A DNA stretch of 64,000 nt, taken from an uncultured Bacilli bacterium (lineage in GTDB: Bacteria; Bacillota_I; Bacilli_A; RF39; UBA660). Where the stretch lies: contig CANRCX010000004.1 in the NCBI GenBank assembly GCA_947629235.1, positions 13,191 through 77,190 of the forward strand. Direction: 5' to 3'. The translations under genes and the position numbers were made by a program. Below, piece by piece: positions 4,288 through 35,323 of the stretch (position 1 is the stretch's first letter; each line of letters starts with the position of its first letter). The notes under the pieces were generated by a model. It had not been told where the DNA came from. It searched no databases and saw only the letters and a list, made by a program, of their open reading frames with translations.

Positions 4288-5814
4288 ATGAAAAAGCTAT
4301 TAAAAAAAGAACAAATACTTTTAGAAATTTTATCAGATATTTATATTTTTACTTTAATAATTATTTTTCCATTAATAGTTAATAAAACTGGTTTCTTTCA
4401 TATATTGGAATGTAAATGGTATTCATTTGTACTTATCGCGACAACATATATTTTATTAAGCTTAATTATAGTATTATATTTTTTAATATTTAAAAAAGTA
4501 AATTATTTTAAAAAATATAAATTTTCTATTATACAGTATTTAGCTATTATATTTTTATTTGTAAATATTGTTTCTTGTTTTTTATCTCCTTTTTTAAATA
4601 AATATAATTTATTTATTGGAGTAGGTAGAGGTGAAGGATTAATAGTAACATCTTTATATATTTTATCTTTTTTATGTTTAACATTTTTTGCTAAATTTAA
4701 GAAAAAATATATTTTATATTTTTCTATTTCTTCAATACTTTTAAATTTAATAGCAATATTACAATATATTGGATTTAATCCATTTAATATGTATCAAAAT
4801 GGTATAGGAACTCATAATGTAAGTTTTATGACAACAATTGGTAATATAGATTTTATATCAGCAATGTATACAATATTATTAACTATATCATTTAGTTCAT
4901 TTATATTTTTAGAAGATAATAAAACATATGAAAAAATTATTCATTTATTATCAGTTTTAATGGGTTCATTTATATTTGGAATAATAAATGTTCAAAGTGG
5001 AAAAGTTGCATTTTTAGTAACATTAGTTATAATATTTCCATTTATAATTACAAATAATAAAAGACTATCTAGATTTTTAATTATGATATCAACAATATTA
5101 TTATCTTATTGTATAAATATAATTATTAATCCAGAATATCATTATGATTTAAATAAGTTAGGACTTTATTTTCAATTTAATTATTTAGTTATTTTATTTT
5201 TAATAGTATGTAGTTTATTAATATATTTATCTTATATATTAAAAAATACTAAATATGATTTTTCTAATAATAAAAAAATAATAAGAAACTTTTATATATT
5301 AATAGTATCTTGTATTTTAATTGTAATAGTTTCTTTATATTTTATTGATTTTAAAAGTGGTATTTTATATGAAGTTCATGAATTATTACATGGAAACTTT
5401 GATGATGAATTTGGTACATATAGAATATTTCTATGGAAAAGATCATTAAAATTAATATTAGACTATCCAATACTTGGAACAGGTCCTGATAGCTTTGCTG
5501 TTAGATTTATGGCTAAATATACTAATGATATTATGGCAATTGGTCCTTTAACAATAAATGATACAGCAGCTAATGTTTATTTAACAATGACTGTTAATTT
5601 AGGAATTATAGGTTTATTAAATTATTTATCATTCTTATTTTATAATTTAAAAGAAGGAATTAAAAATATAAATAAATATTCTGTTGTTTTATTAATCGCT
5701 ATTATTTGTTATATAACTCAAGATTTTTTCAATTTATCTGTAGTTATTGTAAGTCCATTATTTTGGGCATTGTTAGCTATTCATTATATTAGTTATAAGA
5801 ATAAAAATACTTGA
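4288..5814 (+). CDS. O-antigen ligase/polymerase (Wzy_C)-like polytopic membrane protein
   Basis: 508 aa with at least 10 hydrophobic segments. A large loop carries YRIFLWKRSLKLILDYPILGTGPDSFAVRF, which is the R..lW...l.....P.fG.G.gsF signature of the Wzy_C / O-antigen ligase family. Confidence 0.6.
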   Translation: MKKLLKKEQILLEILSDIYIFTLIIIFPLIVNKTGFFHILECKWYSFVLIATTYILLSLIIVLYFLIFKKVNYFKKYKFSIIQYLAIIFLFVNIVSCFLSPFLNKYNLFIGVGRGEGLIVTSLYILSFLCLTFFAKFKKKYILYFSISSILLNLIAILQYIGFNPFNMYQNGIGTHNVSFMTTIGNIDFISAMYTILLTISFSSFIFLEDNKTYEKIIHLLSVLMGSFIFGIINVQSGKVAFLVTLVIIFPFIITNNKRLSRFLIMISTILLSYCINIIINPEYHYDLNKLGLYFQFNYLVILFLIVCSLLIYLSYILKNTKYDFSNNKKIIRNFYILIVSCILIVIVSLYFIDFKSGILYEVHELLHGNFDDEFGTYRIFLWKRSLKLILDYPILGTGPDSFAVRFMAKYTNDIMAIGPLTINDTAANVYLTMTVNLGIIGLLNYLSFLFYNLKEGIKNINKYSVVLLIAIICYITQDFFNLSVVIVSPLFWALLAIHYISYKNKNT

Positions 5815-14999: not shown

Positions 15000-15062
15000 A
15001 CAAACACCTTTTTGTAATTATATAATACTATACAAATAATTGTTTGTCAATTACATAAAATA

Positions 15063-15084
15063 AAAAAGTAGATGTCTACTTTTT
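15063..15084 (-). terminator. intrinsic terminator overlapping the stop of the AAA+ gene
   Basis: AAAAAGTAG / CTACTTTTT around ATGT. On the minus strand a TTTTTTATTTT run follows. Confidence 0.55.
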
Positions 15085-17238
15085 TAATCTAAGTTCTATA
15101 ATTTCACAATGATGTTTTTGTGGTTTCATATTTCTTAATTTTTGAATTTGTCTTGCTTTTGAACTATTATAAAGTCTATCTTCATTAAGTAGTGCACTAA
15201 TAATATCTTCAATTGAAACTTCACTTCTATTATAATAAGCACTAATTGCATAAGCTTCTTTTAAAATATCAATTACCATTCTTGGATTACCAGATTTATC
15301 ATTATAAGTTCTAAATTTATCTTGTGTTGATTCAATTAACCATTTAATTATCATATCTTTTTCTTCATCACTCATAAGTAATTTAGAATAACTAAATTTA
15401 TTATAACTTGTAATTAAATTATCTAATATTTCATATATAACATCATTTGTAGGTTCACTTACTGAAATTTTTTTAAATCTAGTTTTATATGCTTCATCTT
15501 CATTTATATATTTTTGATATTCATTCTCAGTAGTAGAACCAATAATTCTAACTCTTCCTGTATCTAAATAAGGTTTTAATATTTCACTAACAGAATTTTC
15601 ACTATTTTCGGTTTTTCCTGCTCCGATAGTTTGATGAATTTCATCTATAAATAAAAGTATATTTTTAGATTTACTAGCATCATTTAATATTTTTTCCATT
15701 TTTTCTTCAAGAGTACCAACATATTTAGTACCAGCAACAAGAGTACTTGTACTTATATTAAATATTCTTAAATTTTTAAGTTCATCAGGAACATCACCTT
15801 TTTGTATTCTATAAGCAAGTCCATTTACAATAGATGTTTTACCACATCCAGCACGACCTGTTAATATAATAGATTTATCTTTCTCAGGATATAATAAAAT
15901 TTGTTCAATTCGTTTTAATATATCTTCACGTCCTACACTTGGATCTTTTAAATAATTTTCTTTTGTTAATTCATAACCATATTTATTTAAAGCAGATAAA
16001 TTTAATTCATTATCATATTCAGTAGTATTTTCAATAGACTCATCATCTAAATTATTACTTTCACTTTCATTAATAATTACATAATTATCTGTATTTATAT
16101 TTTTCATTTTATTTTGAAAATATTTTTTATCTTTTTCATCTACTATTAAAAATGATTCTTTAAATCTTTTATCTAATTTATATTTAGGATTTTTTTCTAA
16201 ATTTTTTTCGTTTCTAAACTTTCTTAATTTATCAAAATTCTCTAAAGAACAATTCATTATTATATAATTACTTTTTAGTTTAATATTATATTCATTATCA
16301 TTATATTTAAACACAATATTAAATTCTTCTTTATTATAATAAGAATCATATAAATAAGATAATATATCAATTTCATTTGAATTAATTATATGATTATTAA
16401 TACTTATTATTTCTAAACTATTATCTTTTATATTTGATAAATCTAATTTTTCATTATTGTTAATATTTTCAATACTAATAATTAAATCATTATTTACATT
16501 TTTAAAATCATCAAATTTTAAATAATATTTATTATTATCTTTATATATAATAAATCCATTAAATACATTTATTGGAAATCTATCACTAAAACTTTCATTT
16601 ATAACTTCAATATTATCAAAGAAATTAGCTAAATCCATATTAAATATATCATCTAATTCATCATATAAATACATAATTTTATCACTATCAATTTTATAGT
16701 TATATTTTAAAATATTATTAAATAAAGCAGATATTTCGCTATCTTCTAAACTATAATATATATTAATAGGAGTAATTTGTTTATAGAAATTATCATTTTT
16801 ATTTATATATTTATCTTCAAATTCATTTTCAACATAATCACATAAATCATTAAAAACATTATCTAAATTAATTCTATCTATTTCTTCTATTGTAATTTCA
16901 CTATTTAATATACTTGTAAATTTTGATTTTAAATTATTATCTTTAATAATAAATTTATTAAATAAGCTTTTACATGTAATACCATATTCTTTAAATTTAT
17001 TTTTAATATTTTCATCAGTATTTAAAATTGCAAATAAAGAAGAGAAATATATAATTTCATCTGCATATAAATTTCTTATTATTTCTATATCTTTATTTTT
17101 ATCATATTCATGAACTTTTATTTTAGATTCATTCTCATAAAAAAAGCTAGCAATTCTATTCATTATTATTAAATATCTTTTTGTTTCATTATTTAATTTT
17201 TTAAATATTTCGTTATTTTTCATGTTTAATTCTCCCAT
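15076..17238 (-). CDS. Clp/Hsp100-related AAA+ ATPase with a single D1-type module and a long unrelated N-terminal region
   Basis: Residues about 430-720 read like ClpA/B/C D1: GRAGCGKTSIVNGLAYRIQKGDVPDELKNLRIFNISTSTLVAGTKYVGTLEEKMEKIL, ILLFIDEIHQTIGAG, IIGSTTENEYQKYI, RFKKISVSEPT. There is no D2 module. The first 430 aa or so are Asn/Asp/Ile-rich with only a faint Clp_N-like segment. Confidence 0.7.
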   Translation of the reverse strand: MGELNMKNNEIFKKLNNETKRYLIIMNRIASFFYENESKIKVHEYDKNKDIEIIRNLYADEIIYFSSLFAILNTDENIKNKFKEYGITCKSLFNKFIIKDNNLKSKFTSILNSEITIEEIDRINLDNVFNDLCDYVENEFEDKYINKNDNFYKQITPINIYYSLEDSEISALFNNILKYNYKIDSDKIMYLYDELDDIFNMDLANFFDNIEVINESFSDRFPINVFNGFIIYKDNNKYYLKFDDFKNVNNDLIISIENINNNEKLDLSNIKDNSLEIISINNHIINSNEIDILSYLYDSYYNKEEFNIVFKYNDNEYNIKLKSNYIIMNCSLENFDKLRKFRNEKNLEKNPKYKLDKRFKESFLIVDEKDKKYFQNKMKNINTDNYVIINESESNNLDDESIENTTEYDNELNLSALNKYGYELTKENYLKDPSVGREDILKRIEQILLYPEKDKSIILTGRAGCGKTSIVNGLAYRIQKGDVPDELKNLRIFNISTSTLVAGTKYVGTLEEKMEKILNDASKSKNILLFIDEIHQTIGAGKTENSENSVSEILKPYLDTGRVRIIGSTTENEYQKYINEDEAYKTRFKKISVSEPTNDVIYEILDNLITSYNKFSYSKLLMSDEEKDMIIKWLIESTQDKFRTYNDKSGNPRMVIDILKEAYAISAYYNRSEVSIEDIISALLNEDRLYNSSKARQIQKLRNMKPQKHHCEIIELRLKK

Positions 17239-21637: not shown

Positions 21638-21714
21638 GGCGATGTAGCTCAGCTGGCTAGAGCATCTGGTTCATACCCAGGAGGTCGAGGGTTCGAATCC
21701 CCCCGTCGCTACCA
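21638..21714 (+). tRNA. tRNA-Met (CAT), elongator type, CCA encoded
   Basis: Cloverleaf folded by hand: acceptor GGCGATG/CGTCGCT, D arm GCTC/GAGC, anticodon stem TCTGG/CCAGG with loop TTCATAC, T arm GAGGG-TTCGAAT-CCCCC. The 5' half is nearly identical to my recollection of B. subtilis elongator tRNA-Met. It lacks the initiator features (no 1:72 mismatch, no GGG/CCC anticodon stem). Confidence 0.9.
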
Positions 21715-21752
21715 AATTTATAGAAAACTCGAATAATACGAGTAAAATAGAG

Positions 21753-21779
21753 AACGTACTTGATAAAAGTACGTTTTTA
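21753..21779 (+). terminator. intrinsic terminator after tRNA-Met
   Basis: AACGTACTT (21753-21761) pairs with AAGTACGTT (21767-21775), then TTT. Confidence 0.65.
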
Positions 21780-21794
21780 TGTTATTATGTATTT

Positions 21795-21906
21795 GTCAAA
21801 GAAATTTGCATAAAATAAAAAAGGAATACCTAATTTTGATGAGTTAGGTACTATCCTAAAATTATTTCAGTTTAGTACCGACTTATACAGTTGGTACTAT
21901 TTTATT
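21795..21906 (+). ncRNA. candidate antisense sRNA (type I antitoxin-like), ends approximate
   Basis: Promoter TTGATA-17-TATTAT (21760-21788) is homologous to the promoters at 34717 and 35060. Hairpins are AGGAATACCTAA/TTAGGTACTATCCT and TAGTACC(21873-79)/GGTACTA(21893-99), followed by TTTTATT. It is fully complementary to the 3' UTR and last codons of the minus-strand small ORF. Confidence 0.3.
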
Positions 21907-21974
21907 AATATGATTAAAATCACAATAATAAGGAGTATTATGATAGAGCAAAGATATTTCTCTGATTTTCTCAT
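21897..21974 (-). CDS. 25-aa hydrophobic peptide, type I toxin-like (not in ORF track)
   Basis: MRKSEKYLCSIIILLIIVILIILIK. GGAGGTG lies 7 nt upstream of the ATG. It has its own promoter (TTGCAT-17-TGgTATAAT on the minus strand near 22046-22075) and its own terminator (AGGATAGTACCTAA/TTAGGTATTCCT + TTTTTTATTTT ending near 21815). Confidence 0.4.
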   Translation of the reverse strand: MRKSEKYLCSIIILLIIVILIILIK

Positions 21975-22121
21975 AATTTCACCTCCTTTCACTTTAAAAA
22001 GTAAAAGAGAATAGTACCTAAACTAACTAAGTATTCCTAAAATAATTATACCAAACAAATGTTTTTGATGCAATGCTTTTATATTAAATTTTGACAATTT
22101 AAGAAACACATTTGCTTACTA

Positions 22122-22154: not shown

Positions 22155-22784
22155 TTATCTTTTTTTAATTAATTTAGATACATCATTTGAATTTTCAGTT
22201 TTAGATTGTTCTGAGTTTTCTAATAATATTAAATCATAAAAATTAATACCACATTTATCATAAATTGACTTTATTTCATCAAGTGTAATATTTTCAGTAT
22301 ACCATTCAAAATATTTTTGATAATTTTTACTATTTTTAAATAATAATAAGCGTCCAGATACAGTAAATAAATCAATAATATCATTATCATTAACATCTGT
22401 ATTTACTCTTTTGAATCCTAATCTTTCTAAATCTAATACATTATTTAAATTAGATACACTTTTATATGAGCAAGGACTTAAATTCAATTTCTTTTCTATA
22501 TAATCTGTTAAATAAGATAAAACTTTAAATCCATCTTCACGACTCATTCCATCAGGAAGCATAAATGGTTTAAATGGCCAATCAATTACACCTATATTAT
22601 TATCTGTTTTACCATACTGTTCACCAATTCTGTGATAATTAACATAGTGTAATCTATATATATTTTGATTTCCAATTTGATGATCTTCTAGTTCTGCTTC
22701 AAATTCATAATTTTTATTAGTAGTTTGAGATAAATCTGAGATTTTACTTTTTAATTTTTCTAAATTTTCTTTTAAACTCATCAT
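22155..22784 (-). CDS. hypothetical protein
   Basis: 209 aa with an AAAGGAGG RBS. No motif recognised. Confidence 0.6.
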   Translation of the reverse strand: MMSLKENLEKLKSKISDLSQTTNKNYEFEAELEDHQIGNQNIYRLHYVNYHRIGEQYGKTDNNIGVIDWPFKPFMLPDGMSREDGFKVLSYLTDYIEKKLNLSPCSYKSVSNLNNVLDLERLGFKRVNTDVNDNDIIDLFTVSGRLLLFKNSKNYQKYFEWYTENITLDEIKSIYDKCGINFYDLILLENSEQSKTENSNDVSKLIKKR

Positions 22785-22848
22785 AAAGTCCTCCTTTGCA
22801 TGTATTATTTTATCATAAAAAACTATTATTTCAATGATTTATTACATA

Positions 22849-22874
22849 TAAAAACTACTTTTAAGTAGTTCTAT
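22849..22874 (-). terminator. intrinsic terminator of the ASCH gene
   Basis: AACTACT (22853-59) pairs with AGTAGTT (22864-70) around a 4-nt loop, with T-runs on both strands. Confidence 0.55.
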
Positions 22875-22883
22875 TTTTTTAAT

Positions 22884-23225
22884 TTATAATAGTTGTATTC
22901 TAATACCTAAGACACCATATTGTTCTTGCTTTTCTTTTGTATAAAATTGTTCAAGATCTTTAATTAATTTTTCTTTTGTTATAGATTTATCAGCAAGAAG
23001 TGCAATATCAAAATCTTTTAACATATCTTCAAAATTATTATATCTTAATAAACCAATAACTTTAGCTTCAAAAAAATTATTTACTTGTGAATCATTTATA
23101 AATTTAATAGTGTCACCAAGAACTATTTTTTGTCTTTTCTCATCATATAATCTTATTTCAATTCTTTTAGTTCCATTAAGTATATAGTTATAATATTCAG
23201 GTTGTAATTTCATTTCGTATTTCAT
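22884..23225 (-). CDS. ASCH (ASC-1 homology, PUA-like) domain protein
   Basis: 113 aa. MKLQPEYYNYILNGTKRIEIRLYDEKRQKIVLGDTIKF... matches the ASCH beta-barrel start (l...y...i..G.K..E.Rl.d.kr..i..GD.i.f). Confidence 0.65.
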   Translation of the reverse strand: MKYEMKLQPEYYNYILNGTKRIEIRLYDEKRQKIVLGDTIKFINDSQVNNFFEAKVIGLLRYNNFEDMLKDFDIALLADKSITKEKLIKDLEQFYTKEKQEQYGVLGIRIQLL

Positions 23226-34716: not shown

Positions 34717-34745
34717 TTGACAAAATACATAAATAATGTTATTAT
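34717..34745 (+). promoter_or_regulatory. sigma-A promoter of candidate sRNA (repeat copy 1)
   Basis: TTGACA (34717-22), a 17-nt spacer, then TATTAT (34740-45). Confidence 0.55.
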
Positions 34746-34751
34746 GAATAC

Positions 34752-34866
34752 ATCAAGGAAACTTGAATAAAATAAAAAAGGAACATTTAGCTTATTGCTA
34801 AAATGTCTACCTTAATGCGATAGACATTTAGTCTATAAAGAATAGACTAAGTGTCATTTTTTTATT
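34752..34866 (+). ncRNA. candidate antisense sRNA (type I antitoxin-like), ends approximate
   Basis: The 5' hairpin is ATCAAG/CTTGA. Further hairpins are AATGTCTA/TAGACATT and TTAGTCTAT(34828-36)/ATAGACTAA(34842-50), with a T7 run at 34857-63. It is complementary to the 3' UTR and stop region of the minus-strand small ORF. Confidence 0.35.
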
Positions 34867-34946
34867 ACAATTATCAAAATGATAATTAAAAATAAAATGA
34901 TAATTATGAGCTTTAGAATTTTGATCAAAAAAGTCTTAGTTTTCAT
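34854..34946 (-). CDS. 30-aa hydrophobic peptide, type I toxin-like (not in ORF track)
   Basis: MKTKTFLIKILKLIIIILFLIIILIIVIKK. GGAGG lies 9 nt upstream. A minus-strand promoter TTTACT-17-TATAAT sits near 35010-35040. The minus-strand terminator is ACATTTTAGC/GCTAAATGT + TCCTTTTTTATTTT (34770-34812). Confidence 0.4.
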   Translation of the reverse strand: MKTKTFLIKILKLIIIILFLIIILIIVIKK

Positions 34947-35059
34947 ATTATCAAACCTCCTTTCTAAAAAAAGAAGGTAGACACTTTAGCACTAAATATT
35001 CCTTAATATTAATTATAAATGATAATTTATACTAAGTAAAGTAAAACTATACATTTTTA

Positions 35060-35089
35060 TTGACAAAAATACATTAATAATGATATTAT
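35060..35089 (+). promoter_or_regulatory. sigma-A promoter, repeat copy 2 of the sRNA promoter
   Basis: TTGACA (35060-65), an 18-nt spacer, then TATTAT (35084-89). About 120 nt around it are homologous to 34690-34840. Confidence 0.5.
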
Positions 35090-35095
35090 GAATAT

Positions 35096-35249
35096 ATCAA
35101 GGATACCTTGATATAAAATGTCTACCTAAAATTGGAATAGACATTTAGTCTTTAATTATGATATGAGCCCTGTTTCTTGAATAAAAAAGGAATGGGGCTT
35201 ATATCATTATGTACTATTTATTATGAAGTCTTCTACAAGACTATTTTTT
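35096..35249 (+). ncRNA. orphan sRNA paralog or 5' leader of the lipoprotein-MBOAT-DHHW operon
   Basis: Hairpins are ATCAAGG/CCTTGAT, AAATGTCTA/TAGACATTT and ATGATATGAGCCC/GGGGCTTATATCAT, with a terminator-like AGTCTT(35227-32)/AAGACT(35237-42) + ATTTTTT. It ends 75 nt before the ATG at 35324. Confidence 0.3.
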
Positions 35250-35323
35250 ACTTTTAAAAACAATTGATTAATTTTTGAATATATAGTAAACTTTAAATAT
35301 AAGGAAAGTAAAGGAGAAAAATT

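Follow-up and report, generated by a model that had tools for sequence, protein, structure and literature searches.

A predicted type I toxin-antitoxin family of previously undescribed sequence in uncultured low-GC Bacilli, often found behind tRNA genes

In the Gram-positive families of toxin-antitoxin (TA) systems of type I collected in T1TAdb, the antisense RNA lies on the 3' side of the toxin gene and partly overlaps the mRNA and the end of its open reading frame (ORF), and hairpins between the Shine-Dalgarno sequence (SD) and an anti-SD, together with 5'-3' interactions, are key determinants of type I toxin mRNAs (PMC8594479). In bsrG/SR4, from the SPbeta prophage of B. subtilis, nucleotides (nt) 1-35 and 232-262 of the toxin mRNA form a helix, P1, the SD lies in a stem, and SR4, the antitoxin small RNA (sRNA), touches a loop of the mRNA via the loop of its terminator (PMC3834814; Jahn and Brantl 2013). 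Here we describe a locus of comparable layout at 21753-22075 of a 64,000-nt stretch of DNA from an uncultured Bacilli bacterium (the window; about 22% GC), with a 25-amino-acid (aa) ORF on the minus strand and a predicted antisense sRNA on the plus strand, and we consider it likely to be a chromosomal type I TA module of a previously undescribed sequence family. A first-pass annotation of this DNA had already read it in this way and drawn a parallel to txpA/ratA, bsrG/SR4 and fst/RNAII; the type I-like architecture of that parallel stands, while membership in those families by sequence does not, and all the sequence features it had listed across the module were found, bar small counting details. 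The in silico support comprises a coding peptide, a convergent antisense sRNA with an overlap of about 91 nt, an occluded SD and a covarying closing helix, and on the genomic side tandem arrays, patchy presence and a relative (L004) in which the toxin is lost and the sRNA kept.

The toxin ORF, 25 codons plus a stop, lies where it had been proposed, at 21974-21897 on the minus strand, with its ATG at 21974 and its TAG at 21899-21897. It carries the coding signature of the family described below and encodes MRKSEKYLCSIIILLIIVILIILIK, a peptide with one transmembrane segment. Its signals, all on the minus strand, were read from the sequence. The SD, GGAGGTG, is at 21986-21980; a spacing of 7 nt had been given for it, which holds from the GGAGG core, whereas the full GGAGGTG is 5 nt from the ATG. 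The promoter, TTGCAT-17-TGgTATAAT (22073-22045; TTGCAT at 22073-22068, -10 box at 22050-22045), has the extended -10 claimed for it and is less good than claimed upstream, where the -35 box matches at only 3 of 6 positions, which is why a simple consensus scan did not list it. We expect the weak -35 box to be compensated by the extended -10. After the stop codon come two hairpins and the run UUUUUUAUUUU, ending near 21812. The terminal hairpin, GGAUAGUACCUAA...UUAGGUAUUCC followed by UUUUUUAUUUU as its U-run (21856-21812), bears out the proposal that the gene has its own terminator; the terminator scan passed over it on account of its 10-nt loop. This hairpin is predicted to serve as terminator, as 3' partner of a 5'-3' helix and as target of sRNA hairpin 2 and of the A-rich stretch of the sRNA.

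The sRNA promoter, TTGATA-17-TATTAT with a TG upstream (21760-21788, plus strand; consensus scan, 10 of 12 matches), converges on the toxin gene from within a hairpin behind a tRNA-Met gene, as had been noticed. The tRNA-Met (CAU; 21638-21714, plus strand; ARAGORN, and Rfam tRNA at 63 bits) ends shortly before the module, which begins 36 nt 3' of it, and the hairpin, GAGAACGUAC-UUGAUAAAA-GUACGUUUUU (21750-21783, plus strand), carries the sRNA -35 box in its loop. The scan scores this hairpin as terminator-like on both strands, it folds at -13.0 kcal/mol (z = -5.7), and it is predicted to be the terminator behind tRNA-Met. Over an 800-nt region, 5 terminator-like sites were observed against 0.2 expected, and 11 promoter-like sites in the same consensus scan against 6.3 expected. 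From this promoter an sRNA of about 113 nt is predicted (21794-21906, plus strand), both from its fold (three hairpins, -30.4 kcal/mol, z = -5.6) and from a covariance-model match at 21790-21907 (83.8 bits), close to the RNA of about 110 nt with two hairpins and a terminator that had been foreseen. On folding it consists of a 5' hairpin with a GAAA tetraloop (21797-21808), an A-rich stretch, AUAAAAUAAAAAAGG (21810-21824), hairpin 2 (21823-21856; also found by RNAalifold) and a terminator with T-run (21873-21899; found by the scan) that overlaps the toxin stop codon, so that the last 2 toxin codons and the stop lie under it. The sRNA and the toxin mRNA overlap by about 91 nt in perfect complementarity, including these codons and the stop, in agreement with the claim that the RNA is perfectly antisense to the toxin 3' untranslated region (UTR) and its last codons.

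The first-pass argument leaned on a paralogous locus at 34.7-35.0 kb, and this too is confirmed, with the same layout. The second module (34717-35040, both strands; covariance-model match 80.8 bits) has an sRNA promoter at 34717-34745 and an sRNA, sRNA2, at about 34751-34865, both on the plus strand; on the minus strand there is a 30-aa toxin ORF at 34854-34946 (MKTKTFLIKILKLIIIILFLIIILIIVIKK), preceded by an SD at 34960-34956 and a toxin promoter at 35040-35012. Cognate sRNA/mRNA duplexes of the two window pairs reach -148 kcal/mol, compared with -29 to -33 kcal/mol for the non-cognate ones, which is the level of shuffled sequences, and on this modelling the two toxin/sRNA pairs would be orthogonal. 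A third, partial copy lies at 35060-35250 on the plus strand, with a further copy of the sRNA promoter (TTGACA-18-TATTAT) and of the 5' hairpin and a weak covariance-model match (19.7 bits). About 40 nt of it match sRNA2, beyond which come a terminator and hairpins unrelated to it; the copy lacks a toxin ORF and stands back-to-back (divergent) with the toxin-2 promoter. Its duplex with the toxin-2 mRNA is -68 kcal/mol, against -39 +/- 5 for shuffles, a significant complementarity, and it could act in trans as another antitoxin or be a duplicate that has decayed.

Further copies elsewhere had been suggested as a check. Metagenome contigs were scanned with a 22-base motif common to the sRNA 5' parts (GAAAYTT N1-3 ATAAAATAAAAAAGG), which retrieved at least 120 stretches; the family counts given here refer to the matches listed among them. 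We counted as modules those with a convergent ORF on the opposite strand that starts with ATG, is preceded by an SD and encodes a hydrophobic peptide of 20-40 aa. There are 57 such motif matches, corresponding to at least 56 distinct modules of the same layout and at least 44 distinct peptides of 23-36 aa, with the toxin stop codon 72-97 nt beyond the motif. An unrelated contig from a metagenome-assembled genome (MAG), L049, for example, has a full module with the peptide MNKREKSYYFIIILLFILIFIVLIFK. The toxin -10 box is at the equivalent position in 53 family loci, and the position of the sRNA promoter is conserved throughout. The peptides form three subgroups, M-x-K-+-E-K-S...IIxLL (locus 1 type), MKTKTF/MKKRNF...VIKK (locus 2 type) and MxKKDFLI.... 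A covariance model built from 41 of the sRNAs gave 90 matches at E < 1e-3 on 100 of the retrieved loci, many of them outside the seed. Since all members were retrieved via the A-rich motif, more divergent members would be invisible to this search.

Some matches stand apart. Three motif matches in viral contigs reach about 20 bits by the covariance model and were set aside as probably due to chance. In the window itself a weak covariance-model match (15035-15086, plus strand; 20.4 bits, E = 0.11) falls at the 3' end of a 720-aa minus-strand ORF and probably consists of only an A-rich stretch and a terminator. In L180 (1739-2100), whose peptide is the closest homologue of the locus-1 peptide among the matches listed, and in L004 (5600-5615), an A-run is one base longer than at 21897-21905 of the window (ATAAAAATAG vs ATAAAATAG), which abolishes the stop codon; the L180 ORF runs on across the sRNA terminator and reaches a length of 36 aa (…LIKIVPTVKKSVLD). 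The toxin C-terminus may vary by homopolymer length.

The comparison of family members indicates that the ORF is truly coding and under purifying selection. Between ORFs differing by at most 30%, the differences number 643, 313 and 938 at codon positions 1, 2 and 3, and 45% of the differing codons are synonymous in the ORF frame as against 19% and 6% in the shifted frames. T occupies codon position 2 in 84% of the hydrophobic stretch, and the other two frames hold stops in 51 and 39 of 51 sequences. On the opposite strand, RNAalifold of 41 homologous sRNAs predicts hairpin 2 and the terminator with compensatory changes in 17 of 19 pairs. The 5' hairpin with the GAAA tetraloop (hairpin 1) covaries as well, its closing pair being G-C in 39, A-U in 4 and G.U in 1, and its fourth pair G-C in 25 and C-G in 19. 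Read in the sRNA sense, the pair cells of the 41 sRNAs include about 88 G.U and 8 A.C, and this excess argues that the fold is selected on the sRNA strand and is not a mere mirror of the mRNA. The first-pass annotation had cautioned that Ile/Leu/Lys ORFs arise easily by chance in a genome this AT-rich; these data on coding and covariation answer that caveat.

The predicted toxin mRNA is about 225 nt long (about 22038 to 21812, minus strand). Its predicted start, 6-7 nt past the -10 box, coincides with a conserved 5' element, AGGAAYAYUUAR..., in essentially all loci; in the window this element is AGGAAUACUUAGUUAGUUUAGGUACUAUUCU (22008-22038, minus strand). The first ~32 nt are complementary to both arms of the 3' terminal hairpin of the same mRNA. 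By RNAduplex, 5' elements pair with their own 3' UTR at -33.5 kcal/mol, with non-cognate ones at -20.4 and with shuffled ones at -12.9, and in 48 of 48 loci they prefer the own 3' UTR to the sRNA (-20.2 kcal/mol). Pairing of the sRNA with the toxin 5' UTR, as in par, was rejected on this ground. The element differs wholly in sequence among subgroups (AGGAAUAC.. in locus 1, GACACACC.. in L049, GGAUACGUUUGA.. in another subgroup) while the complementarity is retained, and RNAalifold of 29 full mRNAs recovers the long-range 5'-3' helix with compensatory changes. The 5'-3' duplexes contain 105 G.U pairs and 7 A.C mismatches, which argues for selection on the RNA of the toxin strand; a DNA-level terminal repeat as the origin of this inverted repeat was rejected by the asymmetry. 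In the full-length minimum free energy (MFE) structures a helix of about 30 bp closes the mRNA at both window loci (locus 1, -70.6 kcal/mol, z = -8.1; locus 2, -73.3 kcal/mol, z = -9.2). Within the MFE structure, the SD (GGAGGUG) is sequestered in a local hairpin by an upstream anti-SD arm, CUCUUUUACUUU (21980-22010, minus strand), and its unpaired probability averages 0.24 in the family compared with 0.56 in 18 ordinary genes of the window (p = 1e-5). Masking the 3' part of the mRNA raises the unpaired probability of the 5' element from 0.15 to 0.43.

Set beside bsrG/SR4, the locus is alike in its RNA logic. Both have convergent genes with an sRNA that overlaps the 3' part of the toxin mRNA and the ORF end; in both a long helix (P1 in bsrG) closes the mRNA by joining the 5' ~35 nt to a 3' segment, and the SD is double-stranded; the sRNA folds into several hairpins independent of one another, with the loop of its terminator opposite a loop of the mRNA that is complementary to it; and the toxin is a small single-helix membrane peptide. 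Unlike it, the peptides here are unrelated to BsrG by sequence (BsrG matches Hol_Tox, the family peptides nothing), and both the sRNA (about 113 nt, against 183 nt) and the overlap (about 91 nt, against about 123 nt) are shorter. The 5' element here pairs with the terminal terminator hairpin, whereas bsrG has a separate terminator, SL4, downstream of P1, and no consistent change in the SD helix is predicted on sRNA binding. The family occurs in uncultured Bacilli of low GC content, where its modules are often linked to tRNA genes instead of being prophage-borne.

The likeness extends to other systems in part. txpA/RatA and the wider TxpA/BsrG/BsrE/YonT group share the antisense RNA on the 3' side, overlapping the ORF end (PMC8594479), and the mode of action expected of them, RNase III-type decay of a long duplex. 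They differ in that neither Hol_Tox nor an Rfam antitoxin is matched here, and the family peptides, at 23-36 aa, are shorter; their N-terminus is charged (M-x-K-K/R-D/E), and a C-terminal tail is short or missing. With fst/RNAII (par of pAD1) and SprA1/SprA1as, the modules have in common convergent transcription, a small hydrophobic toxin, an SD-occluding 5' stem-loop and repeated sequence elements common to both RNAs. In par the RNAs interact via direct repeats at their 5' ends and share a bidirectional terminator, whereas here the repeat is inverted and gives intramolecular 5'-3' pairing, the terminators are separate and the overlap of about 91 nt is perfect; the Fst model (NF033608/PF13955) is unmatched by the family peptides. 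From hok/sok and aapA1/isoA1 comes the parallel of a full-length toxin mRNA locked by pairing of its ends ('fold-back inhibition'). Those systems are found in Gram-negative hosts and their antisense RNA binds the 5' region, while the antisense RNA here targets the 3' strand of the closing helix, and neither a leader ORF nor any similarity between the peptides is seen. From these comparisons the module is predicted to work like bsrG/SR4, but it is a member neither of that family nor of the Fst family.

The genomic setting gives a different kind of evidence. The upstream MtaB-like protein matches MAGs labelled uncultured Bacilli, 'Tenericutes' and Erysipelotrichaceae at 73-93% identity, and the upstream genes and tRNA-Met are syntenic in these relatives; synteny ends right after the tRNA. 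One relative (L008) has no module, tRNA-Met being followed by about 480 nt and then dltA, and another (L005) has none at the syntenic site, where unrelated genes are found. L004 (87% MtaB identity) alone of the relatives compared at the syntenic site carries the element: behind its tRNA-Met is an sRNA gene 91% identical to that of the window (5444-5660), and the homology ends inside the toxin ORF, with promoter, SD, start codon and N-terminal half gone. It is predicted to be an orphan antitoxin, and loss of the toxin with the antitoxin kept would be the direction of decay expected of a TA pair. Elsewhere the modules multiply; in L130 (2950-4190) three complete modules with diverged peptides (MKKEISFLKLVIIILLIIIVMILV, MNKKDFLISS..., MNKKDFLITS...) stand in tandem, along with an additional sRNA copy that has no ORF, and L181, L094, L172, L168, L175, L157 and L104 have two copies each. 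The hosts are gut Bacilli of very low GC content, uncultured and known from human, rabbit and ruminant samples, their MAGs labelled Bacilli, 'Tenericutes' or Erysipelotrichaceae, and the TypA encoded on one module-bearing human-gut contig shares 96% identity with its counterpart in Candidatus Onthocola (Bacilli incertae sedis). In the window, two minus-strand genes (209 aa and 113 aa; 22155-23225) separate the module from dltA; they are not in L008, and they and the module have the look of a small islet of variable presence.

A same-strand tRNA ends 47-86 nt before the sRNA 5' end in 13 of the 49 modules with enough upstream sequence, against about 0.2 expected from a density of 0.052 tRNAs per kb. 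The linked species are tRNA-Arg, -Lys, -Ala, -Glu, -Leu and -Met, and the loci, besides the window (21638-21794), are L097, L104, L115, L136, L144, L149, L168, L170, L178, L185 and L195. In about 16 of 51 loci the sRNA -35 box occupies the loop of a stable hairpin (CTTGnnAAAAG), and the T-run that comes next forms the promoter spacer, so that the promoter buried in a tRNA terminator is a recurrent trait of the family. Directly after tRNA-Met the window has another hairpin, ACTCGAATAATACGAGT (21727-21743), without a T-run, which resembles the tRNA terminator stem of L005 (ACTCGAAC...GTTCGAGTTTTTT) and could be what is left of an original tRNA terminator that the inserted module pushed aside.

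Several observations weigh against a type I TA system. Eight family peptides run against Pfam and NCBIfam matched no toxin model and gave only noise; they had no match to the Fst model at E <= 10 and none to PF16935 Hol_Tox, while control toxins were recovered (Fst and PepA1 by the Fst model at 1e-8 and 5e-16, BsrG and TxpA by Hol_Tox at 1.8e-8 and 1.8e-7). In the MFE structure the 5'-3' helix takes the place of the sole terminator hairpin, and since the 5' element pairs with that hairpin itself, termination would have to precede closure, the two forming in sequence. Masking the sRNA-bound region in 52 mRNAs brought no consistent change in SD accessibility (0.185 vs 0.181, p = 0.27); only the two window loci showed it lowered (0.15 to 0.05 and 0.27 to 0.00). 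A translational effect like that of bsrG/SR4 is therefore unsupported in general, and an SR4-like accessibility switch was rejected as a family-wide trait. The invariance of the A-rich stretch was imposed by the search pattern, the covariance model was built on sequences that this pattern had retrieved, and every homologue comes from uncultured organisms.

Other resources were silent on the family. PADLOC and PHROGs gave only noise for the family peptides, and an exact look-up found 0 of 10 of them, the window's included, in a collection of 15 billion proteins. A gathering-threshold Rfam scan of the window returned tRNA only, permissive Rfam scans of three modules returned nothing relevant, and blastn of the module had no match in plasmid or phage collections. 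A literature search of incomplete coverage brought up nothing relevant on this family, on type I systems in Erysipelotrichaceae or Mollicutes or on tRNA-linked ones. With no model, no Rfam entry and no record in the protein collection, current pipelines are blind to the family.

The alternative that survives best is that the ORF encodes a non-toxic small membrane protein, such as a regulator or a membrane-complex subunit, whose expression a cis-antisense RNA adjusts and which forms no addiction or toxin module. The coding signature and conserved antisense RNA would fit any antisense-regulated small membrane protein, and the lack of a match to a toxin family agrees with it. We nevertheless regard it as unlikely: such a protein would not lead us to expect tandem arrays of diverged peptides at one locus, patchy presence at syntenic sites, a decayed toxin gene beside a retained sRNA in L004, or translation doubly blocked by an anti-SD hairpin and a closing helix, and no conserved partner gene adjoins the modules. 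These traits are hallmarks of type I TA systems (PMC8594479). The ~30-bp inverted repeat flanking the ORF, the 13 of 49 modules just 3' of tRNA genes and the variable presence could also describe a mobile or repeated element, similar to a miniature inverted-repeat transposable element, that targets tRNA 3' flanks and contains the ORF incidentally. Such an element is very improbable given the frame-specific purifying selection on the ORF, the position of both promoters outside the repeat, and the mismatches of the repeat (105 G.U, 7 A.C), which point to RNA-level selection on the toxin strand; neither target-site duplications nor a transposase were noticed, a systematic search for them not having been made. 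A chance coincidence of ORF, SD, promoters and hairpins in 22% GC DNA, which is rich in Ile/Leu/Lys ORFs and promoter-like hexamers (11 sites where 6.3 are expected), has a negligible probability and is refuted by the comparative data, namely covariation, the coding signature and the dozens of unrelated contigs in which homologous modules keep one order and spacing, alongside terminator-like sites at 5 where 0.2 are expected.

A type I TA module is the reading we retain. Sequence-level features expected of the class, a coding ORF for a hydrophobic peptide of fewer than 60 aa, an antisense RNA and a translation-blocking structure, appear to be present, with the RNA gene signals as predicted. 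In the working model, the minus strand would yield an mRNA of about 225 nt for a 25-aa single-helix membrane peptide, which would be poorly translated, its SD being held in the local anti-SD hairpin and its first ~32 nt paired with its own 3' hairpin. The plus strand would yield the sRNA of about 113 nt from the promoter in the hairpin behind tRNA-Met. The sRNA may nucleate on the U-tail of the mRNA via its terminator loop and/or the A-rich single strand and then zip up, displacing the mRNA 5' element. RNase III would cut the long duplex, the freed 5' end would be open to a 5' exonuclease, and the toxin would not be made. When the sRNA is lost, the stable closed mRNA would persist, and processing or refolding would then yield the membrane peptide. 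The computation shows the sequence features, their conservation, the coding signature, covariation and complementarity, whereas we infer that the genes are transcribed, that the peptide is toxic, that RNases take part and that the steps follow in this order; the same RNA logic has been demonstrated experimentally for bsrG/SR4 (PMC3834814).

The linkage to tRNA genes may mean that insertion favours such sites, that the sRNA gene is insulated there or that it is coupled to transcription of the tRNA. About a quarter of the modules have the sRNA -35 box within a terminator-like hairpin right behind a same-strand tRNA gene, the tRNAs being of at least six species. A tentative and rather doubtful extension of the coupling is that the family has evolved a tRNA-coupled antitoxin, its supply dependent on how the tRNA is transcribed or terminated. 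Strong tRNA promoters under growth-rate control might supply the sRNA by read-through or, alternatively, folding of the terminator might compete with use of the promoter. If this were true, a drop in stable-RNA synthesis would release the toxin and, together with a toxin-mRNA 5' element that resembles the hairpin by which the antitoxin binds its target, the arrangement would be a variant of mechanism not known to have been described for any type I system. The recurrent placement behind tRNA genes is itself a new and testable genomic association. The family has been hidden from annotation and lives in a poorly known gut lineage; its at least 56 naturally diverged modules, in which peptide, sRNA and the ~30-bp 5'-3' helix co-vary, could help to dissect antitoxins that overlap the 3' part of their target, and the set could supply orthogonal RNA regulators.

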